A stretch of 64,000 nucleotides of DNA, from assembly GCA_023205875.1 (NCBI GenBank), contig CP060754.1, positions 124,001 to 188,000 of the forward strand, read 5' to 3'. The translations under genes were made by a program, and so were the position numbers. The stretch's first letter is position 1. Every line of letters begins with the position of its first letter. Of the stretch, positions 30,458 to 40,247 are shown in pieces. The notes under the pieces are model-generated. The model was given only the letters and a program-made list of their open reading frames with translations, was not told the origin of the DNA and did no database searches. The stretch comes from Chloropicon primus. Its lineage: Eukaryota.

Positions 30458-31924
30458 ATGGGGAGGGAGAGTGCAAGGTATGACTACGTGGTGGTGGGAG
30501 GTGGGGTGGCGGGGACGTGCTGCGCGAGGTTGTTGTGCTGCAAGGCGCCCAAGGCGTCGGTGTGCCTCGTGTCTCCCACGGAGAGCTTGAAGACCGTCAA
30601 AGTGGTGAAGCGCGTTACGGACAATCTCGACGAGCTCACTGTGATCGAGCAGCCCGTGGGGTCGTTCAACGACGCGAACCTGGAGTTCGCCAAGGACTAC
30701 GTCGAGAGCATCGACCCGGAGGAGAAGACCTTGGTGCTGGGCGGGGGCCGGAGGATCTCGTACGGGAAGCTCGCCGTGTGCACCGGTGCGAGCCCGAGGG
30801 TCCACCTGTCGGAGAGCCCCCGGCTGATCACGGTGAGGGACACGGACAGCGCCGAGTCCCTGAGGGAGGTGATATCCAGGTCGAACACGAGGCGGGTGGT
30901 GGTCGCGGGAAACGGCGCCATCGCCCTGGAGGTGATAAACAAGCTCAGCGGGGTCGAAGTGGTCTGGATCGTGAAGCATGACCACGTTGGAGACTCCCTT
31001 CTGGACGTGGACGTGGCCCTGCACTTGCTGGAGTCCTTCCAGAAGAGGAACAAGGGCACCTTGCGCGTGGACCAGAGCAGGGGGGGGGCGGAAGACCAGG
31101 GAGGGGGCGGGGGCGCGGCAGGAAAGATCAGGGAGGAGAGGTTCAGGACCCCGCCGGTGAAGCCCGACTTTGGCCACGCCCTCGGCCCCAAGTGGCACGA
31201 GGCCTTCCCCAAGTCCAAAGACGGCCGGGAGACGAGCTTGAGGGTGGTGTACAATAGGAAGCTCGTGGGTGTGGACGAGGGGACCGAGGGCGATTCCGAG
31301 GGGTGGCCAATCTCCGCCGTGCTTTCGGATGGGGAGAGAATTGGGGGCGACGTCATCATATCTTGCATCGGGGTCGTGCCAAACACGACGTGGCTTCCCA
31401 GAGATCGGTTTCAGATGGCGCCGGACGGCGGGCTCAGCGTGAGCGCCAGGCTGGAAACCAGCGTGAAGGACGTCTACGCCGCCGGGGACGTCTGCACCCT
31501 CGACGAGGAGAACCTCGGCCCCCAGTTCTTTCAGATCAGGCTGTGGTCCCAGGCCAGGATGATGGCCGAGTTCGCGGCTCACTGCATGACTGACTCGAAG
31601 GAAGCGGAGTTCTTGGACCTCGGCTTCGACCTCTTCACCCACGTGACCCACTTCTTCGGCTCCAAGGTGATTTTGCTCGGCCTGTACGACGGGCAGCGCC
31701 TGGCGGGGGAGCCGGAGAAGGACAAGGTCCTCTACACCCGAGAGACCGAGGACACCTTCGTCAGGGTGCTGCTCCTGAGGGGAAGGATGCAGGGCGCCGT
31801 GCTCGTGGGGGAGACCGACCTCGAAGAGGTCTTCGAGAATCTCATCCTCGGTGGAATAGACTTGTCCAGGTTCGGTCCCGAAATGCTCGACCCCGAGAAC
31901 GACATCGAGGACTTCTTTGATTAA
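30458..31924 (+). CDS. PYROXD1: Pyridine nucleotide-disulfide oxidoreductase domain-containing protein 1
   Basis: VVVGGGVAGTCCA, VRDTDS, GNGAIALE, ALGPKW, QIRLWSQAR, C-terminal DIEDFFD. Confidence 0.93.
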   Translation: MGRESARYDYVVVGGGVAGTCCARLLCCKAPKASVCLVSPTESLKTVKVVKRVTDNLDELTVIEQPVGSFNDANLEFAKDYVESIDPEEKTLVLGGGRRISYGKLAVCTGASPRVHLSESPRLITVRDTDSAESLREVISRSNTRRVVVAGNGAIALEVINKLSGVEVVWIVKHDHVGDSLLDVDVALHLLESFQKRNKGTLRVDQSRGGAEDQGGGGGAAGKIREERFRTPPVKPDFGHALGPKWHEAFPKSKDGRETSLRVVYNRKLVGVDEGTEGDSEGWPISAVLSDGERIGGDVIISCIGVVPNTTWLPRDRFQMAPDGGLSVSARLETSVKDVYAAGDVCTLDEENLGPQFFQIRLWSQARMMAEFAAHCMTDSKEAEFLDLGFDLFTHVTHFFGSKVILLGLYDGQRLAGEPEKDKVLYTRETEDTFVRVLLLRGRMQGAVLVGETDLEEVFENLILGGIDLSRFGPEMLDPENDIEDFFD

Positions 31925-32139
31925 GTTAAAGTAATAATAAACTAAGGGCCCCACGACCACCATCCATTCGTTCGTTGCGTGTTTGTCCAAAACCCAGCCC
32001 CTTATGGTGTTCAGACATCAGATCAAAAACAGCACACAGAAAAGTCACGAAAGGACGGTAGGGAAATCACAGTCAATACTGGAAGCACAGAGGCAAGTTC
32101 TCCTTTCCACTGAAAGAGAGAAACACGGAGAGAAACGAA

Positions 32140-32309
32140 GACCGGCCACAACTTACCTGTTAGTTTTCTGCAAAGGTCGTTTCACCGAGTTTGTAAGTTT
32201 CTCGGCAGGGTAATTCAGCCCTACCACGACCATTCCACCGTACATGAACGAACACTTCCGCCCACGCACGGCAGCCCGTACTAACAAACGTATGTGCAAC
32301 CCTGAGGAG
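32140..32309 (-). ncRNA. Candidate Fanzor omegaRNA scaffold
   Basis: Directly 3' of the Fanzor stop; nested stems whose G-U pairs work only on the minus strand; 7-bp loop/3' complementarity. Confidence 0.6.
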
Positions 32310-34481
32310 TTACACACTTTTTGGTTGACGCAAGTGCTTCAGGAGGACGTTGCGTGCCCCGTTCACATCCCGACCGCACTTGAAGCCACACTTCTGGCAC
32401 TTGTACACCTCTGCTCCACCCAGGTTGTCCTTGATGTGTCCGCACTTGCCACAGGTCTTGGAGGTGTACTCCTCCGTCACGATCGCCAGCTCACTGCCGT
32501 GCAAGAGCACCTTGGAAGCCAAGAACGTTCTGAACGCATAGTGCCTCAACGTCAAGAGCGTGCGAGCCGTCTTCTTCCTGATCACTCGGCGTCTCCCGTT
32601 GTTGTTCTTCTTCACCATGTCTTGGGACTTGAACTCCGGGAGGAGGATTGTGTCGAACCTCCTGCATAGATCGTTGGCTACCTTTTTGTGAAGCTCGTTC
32701 GTCAGACCTCGAAGTTTCTCCATGCAGGCGTATTGCTGTCTCTTCAAGTCGCGGCGGTCGAGGTAAGGGAGCTTCACCTTTGGGTCTTTGCGCTCGGAAA
32801 TGATCTCATCAATCCTCCAGCAGAGGTTGAACAGCCTCGCGAAGCCTCGCTCGCCCTTGGCATACTCCCCGACGCCTTCTTGCGGCGAGTACGACGTCTG
32901 AAAGGTCCTGACTCCCGGATCCAGGGCGACAACCTTCCGCTTGTTCTCAGGCTTCAGGGGTGGCAGGCGATCCCATGGCGTCGCGATGGGAATGTGCATG
33001 TGGAACTGCCCAAGGCGATTTCTTGTGATCTTCACGGCACCCTCGATCTTGCCCCCGGGGATCTCCTCCGTCAAGTACAGGGGCCCGCCGGCCATCTTCT
33101 TCTTGAACACCTCCAGCTTGGTCCACTTGCGTCGTTTGTTGTGCTTGGTGTCATCCTTGTGCCTCGTGTTTGGCCTTTCGATCGTCTCCACGTTCTTTAA
33201 CTCTCTTGCATCAATTTCAATGGTCCAAGAGCTCGGTTGCTGACGTTGACGATACTTGAGAACGAAGCGGTGCCCCTTCTCCTCGCCGCGCTCCTTCATC
33301 GCTTCCTGCTTCGCGATGTTCGAATCCCATGCCTTGATGAGACTTCGCACGGCAGCTTGTCTGATGGCACAGGGGGTATCCTTCAGCCAAGGATGCTTCT
33401 GATTTACAAAGGCCCCGCTAACGTAGTCCCGGTCCTTGCCCACTTGGATGCGAAAAGCTCTGCCTCCAATTTGGCTCTCGAGTCTCTTCTCTCTGGCCGC
33501 GAAAAGCTCTGCCTCCTGTTTTGTCCATGGCCGTGGAGAGCATTGGATTTCTTTCAGCTCTTTCTCCAGGCCCTCAAAGACCTCAGGGCCTCGAGGTTTG
33601 GCCGTCACAAATCTGTCCAGCAGGACGGTCCAAACCAGCGGAAAACGCTCCTTCTTGACCGCCTCCAAACACTTGTTGTATGTGAAACGCGCAGCTCCCA
33701 TCCAGTTGCAAAGGCACTTCGCCTGCTCAGGGTTCAAGCGCATCCTCAGCTTCCTCGTCCGTATCACCGTTCGCTCCGACAATAGCTTGGAGGTCTTCAG
33801 TTTCTGCCCCCTCTTCCTTTTGGCGGGCGACTGCAATGCCTCGACGGATACCACAGAATCTTCTGGAAGGTTCAAGCACGACCTCCATCCCGTCTTCGGA
33901 CACTTTACCTCTTCAAGTTCTCTCTTGATCGATGAGAACCAGGTCTTCTTCACGCTGTCGTCCGCCAAGCCACCCGGCTGCTTCCCTGCTTTCTTCCCCC
34001 TCTTGTTCTTCTTCTTCTTACCCTTCTTCTTGTTCTTCTTCTTGCCCTTCTTGCGAGGCTTCTTGCGAGGCTTGCCTGACGAGCTCGAACTCTCACCCGC
34101 AGAGGAAGCCGCCTCCGGCGGCTTCCCCTTCCGCTTCCCCCCCCGCTTCTTGCGAGGCGTGCTCGAACCCTCCTCGAAAGCAGAGGCGGGGTCGTCCAGC
34201 GGCTTCTCCTTCCGCTTCCGCCCCCGCTTCTTGCGAGGCGTGCTCGAACCCTCACCCGCAGAGGCGGGGTCGTCCGCGATAGGAAGCAGGCACAACGAGT
34301 AGAGCAACTGCAAGCCCTGATTCCAGAACCGACGTAACGGCCGCTCCGTCGTCGGAGACTCCTGCCCCGACTTCGAAGCGCCCTGAGCATGACTCTCGCC
34401 AGAGTGCGACCTCCTTGTGGAACTCGTCGAGCCACTCCCCTGCTTCTCCTTTTTCTTACGGCGCTTCCCTGATCGCGCCAT
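32310..34481 (-). CDS. Fanzor (Fanzor2/IS607-TnpB-like) RNA-guided endonuclease, 723 aa, intronless
   Basis: HTH/WED RTRKLRMRLNPEQ...WMGAARFTYN; RuvC-I VVALDPGVRTF; RuvC-II ILLPEF...EEYTSKTC; zinc ribbon CGKC..CQKC; RuvC-III GRDVNGARNV. Confidence 0.93.
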   Translation of the reverse strand: MARSGKRRKKKEKQGSGSTSSTRRSHSGESHAQGASKSGQESPTTERPLRRFWNQGLQLLYSLCLLPIADDPASAGEGSSTPRKKRGRKRKEKPLDDPASAFEEGSSTPRKKRGGKRKGKPPEAASSAGESSSSSGKPRKKPRKKGKKKNKKKGKKKKNKRGKKAGKQPGGLADDSVKKTWFSSIKRELEEVKCPKTGWRSCLNLPEDSVVSVEALQSPAKRKRGQKLKTSKLLSERTVIRTRKLRMRLNPEQAKCLCNWMGAARFTYNKCLEAVKKERFPLVWTVLLDRFVTAKPRGPEVFEGLEKELKEIQCSPRPWTKQEAELFAAREKRLESQIGGRAFRIQVGKDRDYVSGAFVNQKHPWLKDTPCAIRQAAVRSLIKAWDSNIAKQEAMKERGEEKGHRFVLKYRQRQQPSSWTIEIDARELKNVETIERPNTRHKDDTKHNKRRKWTKLEVFKKKMAGGPLYLTEEIPGGKIEGAVKITRNRLGQFHMHIPIATPWDRLPPLKPENKRKVVALDPGVRTFQTSYSPQEGVGEYAKGERGFARLFNLCWRIDEIISERKDPKVKLPYLDRRDLKRQQYACMEKLRGLTNELHKKVANDLCRRFDTILLPEFKSQDMVKKNNNGRRRVIRKKTARTLLTLRHYAFRTFLASKVLLHGSELAIVTEEYTSKTCGKCGHIKDNLGGAEVYKCQKCGFKCGRDVNGARNVLLKHLRQPKSV
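34050..34275 (-). repeat. Three imperfect ~78-81 bp tandem repeats encoding basic NLS-like units in the Fanzor N-terminus
   Basis: DDPASAGEGSSTPRKKRGRKRK / DDPASAFEEGSSTPRKKRGGKRK / EAASSAGESSSSSGKPRKKPRKK. Confidence 0.85.
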
Positions 34482-34698
34482 GACTGCTAGGGTTTCACTC
34501 GGCGTCCTCCTCCCTTCCTCTCGCGAGGTAAGATTTTTTACCAGTGCCTTGCCCAGCAAGTGAGAACACGAGCAAACATTTTGTGGGTTGTCCTTTGGGT
34601 GTGACCAAACTGGTATACACTGGAATCCCACCAACAGGGGAAAACCTCCAACACCGAAACGAAAAATGGGGGGAGGAAAAGATTAGACGAAGGAGGGA

Positions 34699-35277
34699 AT
34701 GATGATTGCTGCTGCTCGTTTGGGTGTCAGGTCTGTGGGGGGAAGAGGAAGAGGGCTCTTACTCACGACGAGGTCAAGGTCGGTTGGTAGAAGTGCGGCA
34801 ATGGCGGGGGGAGACTCGTTGTACAAGTACTCCGCCTTGGACATCGACGGCAAGGAGACAAAGTTGTCGAAGTTCGAGGGGAAGGTGAGCCTTGTTGTTA
34901 ACGTGGCGTCCTTCTGAGGCTCGACGAAGCAGTACGCAGGTCTCCAGAAGCTTTATGAAAAGTATGAGGACGACTTCGTAGTGCTCGCCTTCCCTTGCAA
35001 TCAATTTGGCAAGCAGGAGCCTGGAAGCGAAGCGGAGATAAAGGCTTTCGTGGCGGACAAGTACGGGGTGACGTTTCCTATGTTCTCGAAGATCGACGTC
35101 AAGGGCCCTGAGGCCCACCCGATCTACAAGTTCTTGCAGGCGAACGAGTCTGACGACGTGGGCTGGAACTTCTTCAAGTTTCTCGTCAACAAGGAGGGCG
35201 AGGTCGTCGGGAAGAGACACTCCAACAGAGTTACTCCCGAGGACCTGGACGACGATATTGCTGCCCTCGTGGGCTAA
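34699..35277 (+). CDS. GPX: Selenocysteine glutathione peroxidase, copy A (UGA=Sec at 34915-34917)
   Basis: VVNVASF-U-GST, LAFPCNQFG, WNFFKFLV all in one frame; SECIS downstream. Confidence 0.93.
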
Positions 35278-35344
35278 GCGCTTCCCGTCTTCCGAGCGAG
35301 CCTCCCTTGCGAGAGCAACCCGGTGCGGGGGCGGGACAGGGACA

Positions 35345-35400
35345 GAAGATCATGACCGGGGCACCTCAAATACGCATGGTGCTTTGTGATTACGACACGC
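35345..35400 (+). promoter_or_regulatory. SECIS element of GPX copy A
   Basis: ATGAC-cggggcacc-tc-AAA-tacgcat-ggtgctttg-TGAT: AUGA/GA quartet, 9-bp stem, apical AAA. Confidence 0.85.
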
Positions 35401-35507
35401 ATGAAAAATGCTAGCTTTTAACCTTTCCGCCCTTGTAAACGGAGTTTTTTTTGTTTTGTTGTTGTTTTACACGAAAACACGAGAACCAAAAAAATCGCTC
35501 AAGCAAT

Positions 35508-35590
35508 CACGTTCCCCCTCCCCCTCCGCCCATGGGAGTACTTGGAAGACACCATGGTCCGGTCCGGTCGCACTCTCGTTCCCCCCTCTT
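35508..35590 (-). pseudogene. ~80-bp inverted fragment of the 5' end of the GPX gene that starts at 39576
   Basis: Reverse complement of ~39545-39623 (ATGGTGTCTTCCAAGTACTCCCATGGGCGG...), with small indels upstream of the ATG. Confidence 0.85.
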
Positions 35591-35685: not shown

Positions 35686-36261
35686 ATGACTGAAGAGGAA
35701 GAGCAGGTTTCCCCTGTTTCGCCCGCGGAGTCGCCCGTCGTGGTGGAGTCCGAGGAGGTGCAGGAGGTGGTGGCACCACCAGAGCCGCTTCAGGAAGTCG
35801 AGCCCGAGCCGTTACCAGAGCCCGAGGTTTCGGAGGTTTTATCGAGCTCGAGGGCCGAGATGGAGAGAGCTTCCGCTGAAAAGAAGAGGCTGTCCATCCA
35901 AGGTGAGTCCCGGGCCTCACTCGAACGTTAAGGAGAGCCTCCCAAGCTGAGCCTCGTTCTTTTTCTTTCTCTCGCACACGCACGCACGACGACGACGACG
36001 ACGACAACACACAAAGCGGGACAGAGGGAGCTCGAGAAGATAAGAAAGGAGCTCGACGAGAAGGCTGCCGCGAAGAGGGATGCAGTGCGCGAGGCGAGCC
36101 AGAGAAGCGAGCAGAACAACATCGCCGACATGGCTCCCACGGCCACGAGGACCAAAGAGGAGTCGTGGGGTTTGGTCTGCGACTTGGTGGATTTCAAGAG
36201 GGACACGAAGGCGGACATGTCGGTGATGAGGGCCGTGCTCCTTCAGCTCAAGCACGGCTGA
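35686..36261 (+). CDS. CLC: Clathrin light chain, 2 exons (35686-35902, 36017-36261)
   Basis: Acidic N-terminus, coiled coil, C-terminal SWGLVCDLVDF...DMSVMRAVLLQLKH typical of clathrin light chains. Confidence 0.75.
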
Positions 36262-38623: not shown

Positions 38624-38784
38624 TTCGTGCGCTGGTTCGTGTGCGCGTGCGCGCGCGGAGGGCTGAGCGGATTGGTGATTGCTTGAGCGATTTTTTTGGT
38701 TCTCGTGTTTTCGTGTAAAACAACAACAAAACAAAAAAAACTCCGTTTACAAGGGCGGAAAGGTTAAAAGCTAGCATTTTTCAT

Positions 38785-38840
38785 GCGTGTCGTAATCACA
38801 AAGCACCATGCGTATTTGAGGTGCCCCGGTCATGATCTTC
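38785..38840 (-). promoter_or_regulatory. SECIS element of GPX copy B
   Basis: Mirror image of 35345-35400. Confidence 0.85.
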
Positions 38841-38907
38841 TGTCCCTGTCCCGCCCCCGCACCGGGTTGCTCTCGCAAGGGAGGCTCGCTCGGAAGACGG
38901 GAAGCGC

Positions 38908-39486
38908 TTAGCCCACGAGGGCAGCAATATCGTCGTCCAGGTCCTCGGGAGTAACTCTGTTGGAGTGTCTCTTCCCGACGACCTCGCCCTCCTTGTTGAC
39001 GAGAAACTTGAAGAAGTTCCAGCCCACGTCGTCAGACTCGTTCGCCTGCAAGAACTTGTAGATCGGGTGGGCCTCAGGGCCCTTGACGTCGATCTTCGAG
39101 AACATAGGAAACGTCACCCCGTACTTGTCCGCCACGAAAGCCTTTATCTCCGCTTCGCTTCCAGGCTCCTGCTTGCCAAATTGATTGCAAGGGAAGGCGA
39201 GCACTACGAAGTCGTCCTCATACTTTTCATAAAGCTTCTGGAGACCTGCGTACTGCTTCGTCGAGCCTCAGAAGGACGCCACGTTAACAACAAGGCTCAC
39301 CTTCCCCTCGAACTTCGACAACTTTGTCTCCTTGCCGTCGATGTCCAAGGCGGAGTACTTGTACAACGAGTCTCCCCCCGCCATTGCCGCACTTCTACCA
39401 ACCGACCTTGACCTCGTCGTGAGTAAGAGCCCTCTTCCTCTTCCCCCCACAGACCTGACACCCAAACGAGCAGCAGCAATCATCAT
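38908..39486 (-). CDS. GPX: Selenocysteine glutathione peroxidase, copy B (UGA at 39270-39268)
   Basis: Same peptide sequence as copy A. Confidence 0.93.
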
Positions 39487-39575
39487 TCCCTCCTTCGTCT
39501 AATCTTTTCCTCCCCCCATTTTTCGTTTCGGACGGAAAACCAAACAGAGGGGGAACGAGAGTGCGACCCCGGACC

Positions 39576-40247
39576 ATGGTGTCTTCCAAGTACTCCCATG
39601 GGCGGAGGGGGAGGGGGAACGTGGGTTCGTTGCCGAAAGCGGTAGTAGGCTTGACCTTGCTTGCTGCGGGGTTTTACGTGGTCACGAGACTGGGGTTGGG
39701 AGGAAGACAGGCGCAGAGACCACACGCTGTGAGCTTGAGCGCTCCGGGAGGGGAAGCAGCGAAGCAGCCCGTGTACGACTCGTTGTACAAGTACACCGCC
39801 TTGGACATCGATGGGGTAGAGACTAAATTGTCGAAATTCGAGGGGAAGGTGTCGCTTATTGTGAACACGGCCACGTACTGAGGCTCGACGTACCAGTACG
39901 GCGACCTCCAAAAGCTGTACGAGAAGCACAAGAAGAGGGGGCTCGTCGTGATGGGCTTTCCTTGCAATCAATTTGGGAGGCAGGAGCCTCACGACGAGGC
40001 TACGATCAAGCAGTTTGTGGCGGACAAGTACGGGGTGACGTTTCCTATGTTTTCCAAAGTTGAGGTCAAAGGGCCTCATGCTCATCCCATATTTCGTTTC
40101 CTGACCTCCAGCGAGAAGGCCGGAACGGAGGAGATTGGGTGGAACTTCTTCAAGTTCTTGGTCGATCGGAACGGCCACGTCGTCAAGAGGTACAAAGGCG
40201 CTGACAAGCCCTTCGCAATCGAGAAGGACATTCTCGAACTCTTGTGA
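39576..40247 (+). CDS. GPX: Selenocysteine glutathione peroxidase paralog with N-terminal membrane/signal anchor (UGA at 39879-39881)
   Basis: IVNTATY-U-GST, MGFPCNQFG, WNFFKFLV in frame; hydrophobic AVVGLTLLAAGFYVV. Confidence 0.92.

Follow-up and report, generated by a model that had tools for sequence, protein, structure and literature searches.

The window (the whole 64-kb stretch of Chloropicon primus DNA that was analysed) carries an intact Fanzor2* copy, and we judge the chance to be about even that its guide comes mostly by splicing to downstream host sequence and not from the insertion flank. This reading starts from the observation of an intact ORF with its catalytic residues, near-identical copies, a TnpA frame that is dead and, past the stop codon, a structured RNA. 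Moreover, contigs that we take as RNA are discontinuous at position 32157, where three of them join different foreign sequences, and the DNA is continuous there. The protein is known, and the RNA arrangement is probably new. Fanzors have no settled biological role in eukaryotes, and in the standard model the guide has to come from the flank of the insertion. In this alga, which is cultured and diploid and has a small genome, an element that amplified recently appears to break this link. The features are collected in Table 1.

Table 1. Features of the Fanzor2* element and its surroundings, in window coordinates
Feature	Position	Strand	Basis or remark
Multi-copy non-autonomous element with Fanzor as sole cargo	32002..34655 (approx.)	(-)	DNA depth, flank divergence
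Right end with short degenerate inverted repeat	32002..32011	(+)	GGTGTT here, AACACC at 34650-34655
Candidate 5-nt target-site duplication (TSD) GCCCC	31997..32001	(+)	right end; after the variable 5-nt TSD of Yoon et al. (bioRxiv)
Glutathione peroxidase gene duplicate, inverted, 857 bp	34654..35510	(+)	0 mismatches to 38675-39531
Fanzor2 ORF, intact	32310..34481	(-)	reading frame, Pfam, NCBIfam, motif alignment
Decayed IS607 TnpA, second frame under the Fanzor N terminus	33841..34425	(-)	4 stops, YCRVSS catalytic motif absent
Lys/Arg-rich stretch, residues 137-166, predicted nuclear localization signal	33984..34073	(-)	composition, 21/30 K/R
HTH_OrfB_IS605, residues 240-277	33651..33764	(-)	Pfam
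RuvC-I Asp521 (DPG)	32919..32921	(-)	149/149 homologues
Pro615 in place of the canonical RuvC-II Glu	32637..32639	(-)	148/149 homologues
Alternative catalytic Glu670	32472..32474	(-)	alignment; matches ApmFz2 Glu467 by position
C4 zinc ribbon, C677-C698	32388..32453	(-)	Pfam and motif alignment
RuvC-III Asp705	32367..32369	(-)	motif alignment
Predicted omegaRNA scaffold, three hairpins and closing long-range helix	32157..32330	(-)	fold z -4.53
5' splice donor CAG/GTAAGT at the predicted scaffold/guide boundary	32151..32159	(-)	exon end 32157
Unstructured, pyrimidine-rich, intron-like tail common to copies	32002..32156	(-)	fold z +0.92

The nuclease and its published family

The ORF runs on the minus strand from 34481 to 32310 and encodes 723 aa with no internal stop; an earlier note on this DNA had given the uninterrupted 723-aa frame but not its strand, the element ends or the copy number. 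All of the motifs listed there were recovered, namely, ALDPG at RuvC-I (D521), the Pro of ILLPEF (P615), the Glu in EEYTSKTC (E670), the CxxC..CxxC ribbon (C677/C680/C695/C698) and RD.NGARN (D705). E670 is the first of two Glu residues in TEEYTSKTC and lies 6 residues before C677, in keeping with the Fanzor pattern of a catalytic Glu shifted to a place shortly ahead of the zinc finger, with Pro or Gly at the canonical site. D521, P522, G523, E670 and D705 were invariant among the 149 aligned homologues, and DPG at RuvC-I is part of the Fanzor definition given in the text of PMC10711439. The profile search that the note had proposed returned PF07282, the TNB zinc ribbon, at residues 647 to 712 (9e-18) and PF12323 (1.9e-06), and the NCBIfam model guided_TnpB scored 93 bits, just under its cut-off of 100.

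An AF2 model of residues 200 to 723 (mean pLDDT, 89.7) showed a TnpB/Fanzor2 fold; it superseded a first model built from 14 sequences, which had a pLDDT of 59.8 and was weak at the active site. The best solved-structure match by sequence was the mimivirus Fanzor2 ApmFz2 (9b0l; 1.5e-19), far ahead of the others. ApmFz2 was also the top Foldseek match (1.8e-12), whereas the Fanzor1 protein SpuFz ranked 46th (1.6e-04). Structural comparison of the model gave a Z of 22.3 with ApmFz2 (384 residues aligned, rmsd 3.7, identity 22%, the highest) and of 24.4 with ISDra2 TnpB (331 aligned). The five nearest loci carry IS607 transposase ORFs, and IS607 relatives form the nearest clade (support 1.0); the tree includes no Fanzor1 rows, so that placement in Fanzor2 and not Fanzor1 rests on the sequence and Foldseek matches and on the nearest loci. 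By every sequence feature tested, the ORF is a member of Fanzor2, and the IS607 descent put forward in the earlier note is supported. In metagenomic data, two proteins (P0030 and P0064) carry an XPG/FEN1-type nuclease fused to a Fanzor2-like domain.

Contamination or misassembly, raised earlier as a possible objection, is unlikely, because one DNA contig (31125-32029) crosses from unique flank into the element without a mismatch. The surrounding genes are eukaryotic (eIF3c, condensin, VPS51, SAC3 and a cap methyltransferase).

The 90%-identity cluster of the ORF comprises 46 sequences, 40 of which were read; among the 15 listed, the named members are C. primus proteins, mostly annotated as "putative IS605 transposase." The paralogues are 92.6 to 98.9% identical to the ORF, with C. 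primus labels on paralogues of 96 to 99% identity, and range from 686 to 746 aa. UPR03652 (97% identical), UPR02811 and UPR04245 (about 98% each) belong to the curated set of Yoon et al. 2023 (PMC10711439), where C. primus Fanzor2* is described as captured by a non-IS607, non-autonomous cut-and-paste element. Thus, the protein itself was already known, its family having been published as Fanzor2*. The preprint version of Yoon et al. (bioRxiv 10.1101/2023.08.09.552727) gives the TSD of these elements as variable and 5 nt long and found no autonomous partner for them; their terminal inverted repeats (TIRs) are degenerate. The C. primus genome paper (PMC6731263) gives a count of 25 IS605-like genes.

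Catalytic motifs were intact in 21 of the 23 cluster proteins checked, the exceptions being a 307-aa fragment and a SET-domain protein. The 20 coding variants scored, which came from 40 of 97 rows, were evenly spread over the codon positions (7/7/6), which shows no purifying selection between copies. The paralogues differ in clustered patches (residues 56-65, 255-256 and 342-348 of the ORF), suggesting mosaic subfamilies; patch 342-348 sits in a REC helix of the predicted model. One annotated copy is fused to a SET-domain gene that lacks its first 13 residues, and another record keeps that gene intact (P0135/P0136); the fusion is possibly an insertion at the gene start or a gene-model artefact.

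We then considered the N terminus. Its Lys/Arg-rich stretch is predicted to act as a nuclear localization signal, by analogy with the proteins described in PMC10530073. An 81-bp duplication and 9- to 12-nt Lys-codon repeats at 34071-34275 lengthen this region in frame. The earlier note had read the N-terminal pattern FWN..LLP..TWFS as a mark of the IS607 lineage. The lineage stood, but the pattern arises where a decayed IS607 transposase occupies a second reading frame of the same DNA: we regard it as overprinted on TnpA because the relatives show the same frame overlap and the window holds the relic. A resolvase match was present in 86 of the 127 loci that had a long Fanzor/TnpB frame; in 77 of these 86, it overlapped the open Fanzor frame by >150 nt, always with one fixed frame offset. 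Of the nearest loci, L003, L005 and L006 scored above the curated cut-off for IS607 transposase and L001 and L002 scored below it. Conservation of the Fanzor accounts for part of the TnpA match seen in the window, and the argument rests on the intact overlapping resolvases of the relatives; an intact serine-recombinase TnpA, as in an IS607 element, is absent from the window. We did not find this frame overlap in print, including the accessible text of PMC3627910, PMC10432273 and PMC10691335 (subscription papers were outside the scope of the search). The IS607-Fanzor2 element at L005 (2442-3517) adjoins an assemblin-like protease gene recognized by weak Pfam matches, hinting at a viral host.

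These data bear on whether the nuclease is used at all. It might be an unused passenger in vivo, with an ORF that is intact through recent amplification and a splice donor that does no more than supply the mRNA with a 3' end from the host. The identity of the paralogues (92.6-98.9%) and the even spread of the variants fit such a passenger, as does the Chlamydomonas Fanzor1 that formed an RNP without cleavage (PMC10530073, in the text available). Yet in-frame expansions left the Fanzor frame open, whereas stops accumulated in the TnpA frame that overlaps it, the catalytic motifs are intact in nearly all of the cluster proteins checked and the scaffold is still strongly structured; we consider disuse improbable.

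The element and its ends

In the DNA run X1, summed contig depth reached thousands within the element compared to about 80 to 230 outside, and single contigs reached a depth of 3572 compared to 82 to 108 in unique flanks. This suggests a few dozen copies, depth not being copy number. At the right end, four other copies have flanks that part from one another at 32002-32005, and in run X4 three contigs begin at 32002. The left limit, near 34653-34655, is less certain; another copy continues differently beyond 34653. A multi-copy element with the Fanzor as sole cargo and degenerate terminal inverted repeats agrees with the published description of Fanzor2* cut-and-paste elements. A 3-nt TAA target duplication, our first reading of the right-end flanks, was set aside as less probable in view of the variable 5-nt TSD reported in the preprint text and of the X4 contigs, which share sequence as far as 32002.

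The candidate TSD had no matching copy at the left end, which adjoins a duplicated gene. This duplicate of a glutathione peroxidase gene begins exactly at the left end of the element and has about double depth in X1. We read the left end as a repaired break. The duplicate is inverted and circularly permuted: after 857 identical bp, a 3-nt microhomology links it to about 85 bp taken from its own upstream region. A circular intermediate, or template switching at the left end of the element, would fit this arrangement. The gene (34654-35590 and 38675-39623) has an in-frame TGA, which we take to be probably a selenocysteine codon. A third, older paralogue at 39759-40247 (76% identity over 314 bp) lies head-to-head with the source copy and has an in-frame TGA too.

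The scaffold boundary and the splice donor

The 174 nt from 32330 to 32157, which follow the stop codon, folded better than any of 200 shuffles, and all of the structure signal lies in this segment; the next 155 nt, from 32156 to the element end at 32002, showed no such excess. DNA depth of this tail was high throughout, bar a length-variable patch near 32118-32141. The predicted scaffold is closed by a 6-bp helix with arms at 32285-32280 and 32164-32159, which reads GTTAGT/ACTAAC in the window. It also forms in the four closest loci (L001, L002, L003 and L005) with compensatory changes, the pairs in these four loci being GTTAGT/ACTAAC, GTTGGT/ACCAAC, GCTGGT/ACTAGC and GCTCTA/TAGAGC; these arms were compared by script, since MAFFT misaligned the RNA arms. 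In L001 and L002, the helix ends with AACGG, in which GG follows the last pair, and the experimentally mapped scaffold end of ISXfa1 is GAACGG (Yoon et al., PMC10711439). Similarly, the last scaffold bases of the ApmFz2 omegaRNA pair with its 5' part and close a pseudoknot, according to the sections of PMC11832414 consulted. In some contigs of X3, X4 and X1, a scaffold subfamily has the internal hairpin region (32184-32270) replaced and rejoins before the closing helix.

We examined how generally such a helix marks the element end. Enough downstream DNA was available for 145 loci, of which 75 had a partner copy defining an end; one locus was chosen to stand for each of 19 multi-copy groups, bad ones included, and compared with 240 shifted control positions. 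A helix of at least 6 bp ended 1 to 4 nt before the element end in 6/19 groups compared to 13/240 controls, and one of at least 5 bp in 10/19 compared to 59/240. The rule is enriched and not universal, since it failed in 9 of the 19 groups. In the window, a 7-bp helix ends at 32158 and a second one at 32082, and none of at least 5 bp terminates at a distance of 4 nt or less from the true right end. From homology and folding we infer that the scaffold ends at 32157 (plus or minus 2). In the OMEGA arrangement, the scaffold end coincides with the right end and the variable flank serves as guide; here the predicted end lies 155 nt inside. Rfam gave no match near the gathering score in 31800-34800. 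In viral contigs, the right-end and scaffold patterns gave 17 and 8 matches, respectively, none of them with a Fanzor or extended similarity.

The predicted boundary coincides with a splice donor that agrees with the consensus at 9/9 positions and is the only such donor in the window, both strands considered. We took X3, X4 and X7, from three studies, as RNA because they skip a GT..AG intron (35899-36014) that is retained in X1. All four sets are assembled contigs and not reads, the RNA status of the three is inferred and their depth is not expression; X3 comes from the same sample as X1. The contigs of X3, X4 and X7 all stop or fork at 32157. In X3, a contig ending there had a depth of 8050 compared to 332 for the read-through contig; in X4, the depths were 282 and 34, with 3/7 contigs ending at this position; in X7, the depth was 28 and there was no read-through. 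Three contigs run from 32157 into different GC-rich foreign sequences (two of six loose-end rows in X3 and the only one in X7). In contrast, none of the five loose-end rows of X1 fell at 32157, and X1 holds both sides of the position at similar single-contig depths (3572 and 2303, plus variants). X1 shows three right-end flanks, this copy's among them, and rare DNA variants could be missed in it. The three foreign sequences were absent from the window, where their acceptor AG was accordingly not seen, and the contigs did not include the spliced joint of this particular copy.

Internal acceptors at 32110 and 32079 were rejected, since no joint was seen there and X4 depth was flat at 34; X3 has an unexplained hole at 32094-32115, in the same region. 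One X3 contig (contig 10) carries a variant of the tail (32034-32093) that runs into an AG and then into foreign sequence; this may be the host intron that was the source of the tail, or a copy that is truncated.

Literature searches, subscription papers lying outside their scope, turned up no description of a Fanzor with a spliceosomal donor where its guide begins, or with a spliced or fixed guide. The text of Yoon et al. that was consulted mentions neither a splice donor nor a scaffold ending internally nor a TnpA relic, and reports no activity, although its figures 2A, 4A and S3 may show a boundary of their own for this element and so bear on the claim; the preprint text has no occurrence of "splic" or "intron."

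Source of the guide and comparison with known systems

The earlier note had placed the omegaRNA of Fanzors at the 3' end. The textbook guide from the 3' flank of the element probably does not apply here, because the predicted scaffold stops at the donor where the RNA-type contigs break, some 155 nt short of the element's right end. For the conventional arrangement to hold, a scaffold of about 330 nt would extend to the right end, including TIR and TSD, with the flank after 32002 as guide; the nuclease would cut empty alleles, and splicing would merely lower the omegaRNA level. The text of Yoon et al. (PMC10711439), in which TIR and TSD appear to be part of the scaffold in Fanzor2* elements, favours this, as do the characterized Fanzor RNAs that abut the right end (PMC10530073) and the whole 329-nt region, which folds better than shuffles (z -2.64). 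We consider it improbable all the same: that structure lies entirely upstream of 32157, the conserved closing helix ends at 32158-32159 with none at the right end and the arrangement would lack a fixed TAM because the 5-nt TSD is variable (Yoon et al., bioRxiv text).

Another arrangement would keep a guide that is identical in every copy. An ancestral IS607 element inserted at a host exon/intron junction may later have been taken up by a TIR element together with part of the intron. The unspliced minority, with the same guide (GTAAGTTGTGGCCGG...) throughout, would then be the working omegaRNA, and splicing would be a by-product or, as in IStrons, an off-switch. The intron-like tail is indeed common to the copies, and its first ~20 nt would be the fixed guide in unspliced RNA, for which read-through contigs exist (depth 332 in X3 and 34 in X4). 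Moreover, related groups end in CAG or have an AG after the helix (L045/L047 and L069/L158), and in IStrons splicing and omegaRNA function are described as mutually exclusive (PMC13565253). Against this, a search for targets of the fixed guide found only the element itself in the window, viral sequences gave 19 15-mer matches with none longer than 16 nt and a fixed guide would bring no benefit at new insertion sites. A frozen guide of this kind seems unlikely to us.

We thus return to a guide supplied by splicing. In this mechanism, the joints at 32157 would be spliceosomal cis-splices to host acceptors, and the end of the scaffold is positioned by homology at 32157 (plus or minus 2). The protein is predicted to enter the nucleus and bind the scaffold, and the first 15 to 20 nt after the acceptor would serve as a locus-specific guide. 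The acceptor AG would take the TAM position, mirroring the terminal AG of the scaffold as GG does in IS607. The TAM would be NAG but not CAG, because unspliced RNA would otherwise cut every copy. Breaks near insertions on both alleles, followed by local recombinational repair, would act in place of cutting of the empty site, and the element would be moved in trans by a transposase encoded elsewhere. The weak point is that an exon-derived target is present on filled and empty alleles alike, so that the benefit is not evident. The full form of the proposal, in which each insertion splices its scaffold to a host acceptor and the nuclease is aimed at exon starts with AG as TAM, is possible but doubtful. 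If true, a guide loaded by the spliceosome would be a new guide-loading route in the TnpB/Cas12 family, and the element would be a natural splice-reporting RNA-guided nuclease. For editor tests of this orthologue, the scaffold end would probably be misplaced if the transposon end were used.

Among known systems, the element belongs to the same family as the C. primus Fanzor2* described in the text of Yoon et al. 2023 (PMC10711439), being likewise non-autonomous with degenerate TIRs. Its protein resembles ApmFz2 (PDB 9b0l; PMC11832414), whose D324/E467/D501 correspond to D521/E670/D705 and which also has a basic N terminus, along with a pseudoknot-closed omegaRNA. ApmFz2, as described there, is carried by an IS607 element that has TnpA, its RNA extends to the end of that element and its TAM is GGG; in contrast, the Chloropicon protein has 723 aa compared to 520, its TnpA is dead and the predicted scaffold ends inside a TIR element. 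The IS607 elements with pro-Fanzor or Fanzor2 (ISXfa1 and L001 to L006) have the same overlapping TnpA frame and the same closing helix, but GTAAGT after this helix, present in the window, was found in none of the four relatives checked (L001, L002, L003 and L005). In IStrons, a splice site lies at the scaffold/guide boundary of the omegaRNA and splicing alters the guide RNA (PMC10690162; PMC13565253, in the text consulted), and the same would apply here. IStrons use an intron of group I that is self-splicing, whereas the window has a GT-type donor and no Rfam match, and at the spliceosomal 5' donor of the Chloropicon element the predicted scaffold would remain exonic and become linked to new sequence. 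The element is thus no longer an IS607 element and is not an IStron, but it is IStron-like in tying splicing to the guide boundary.
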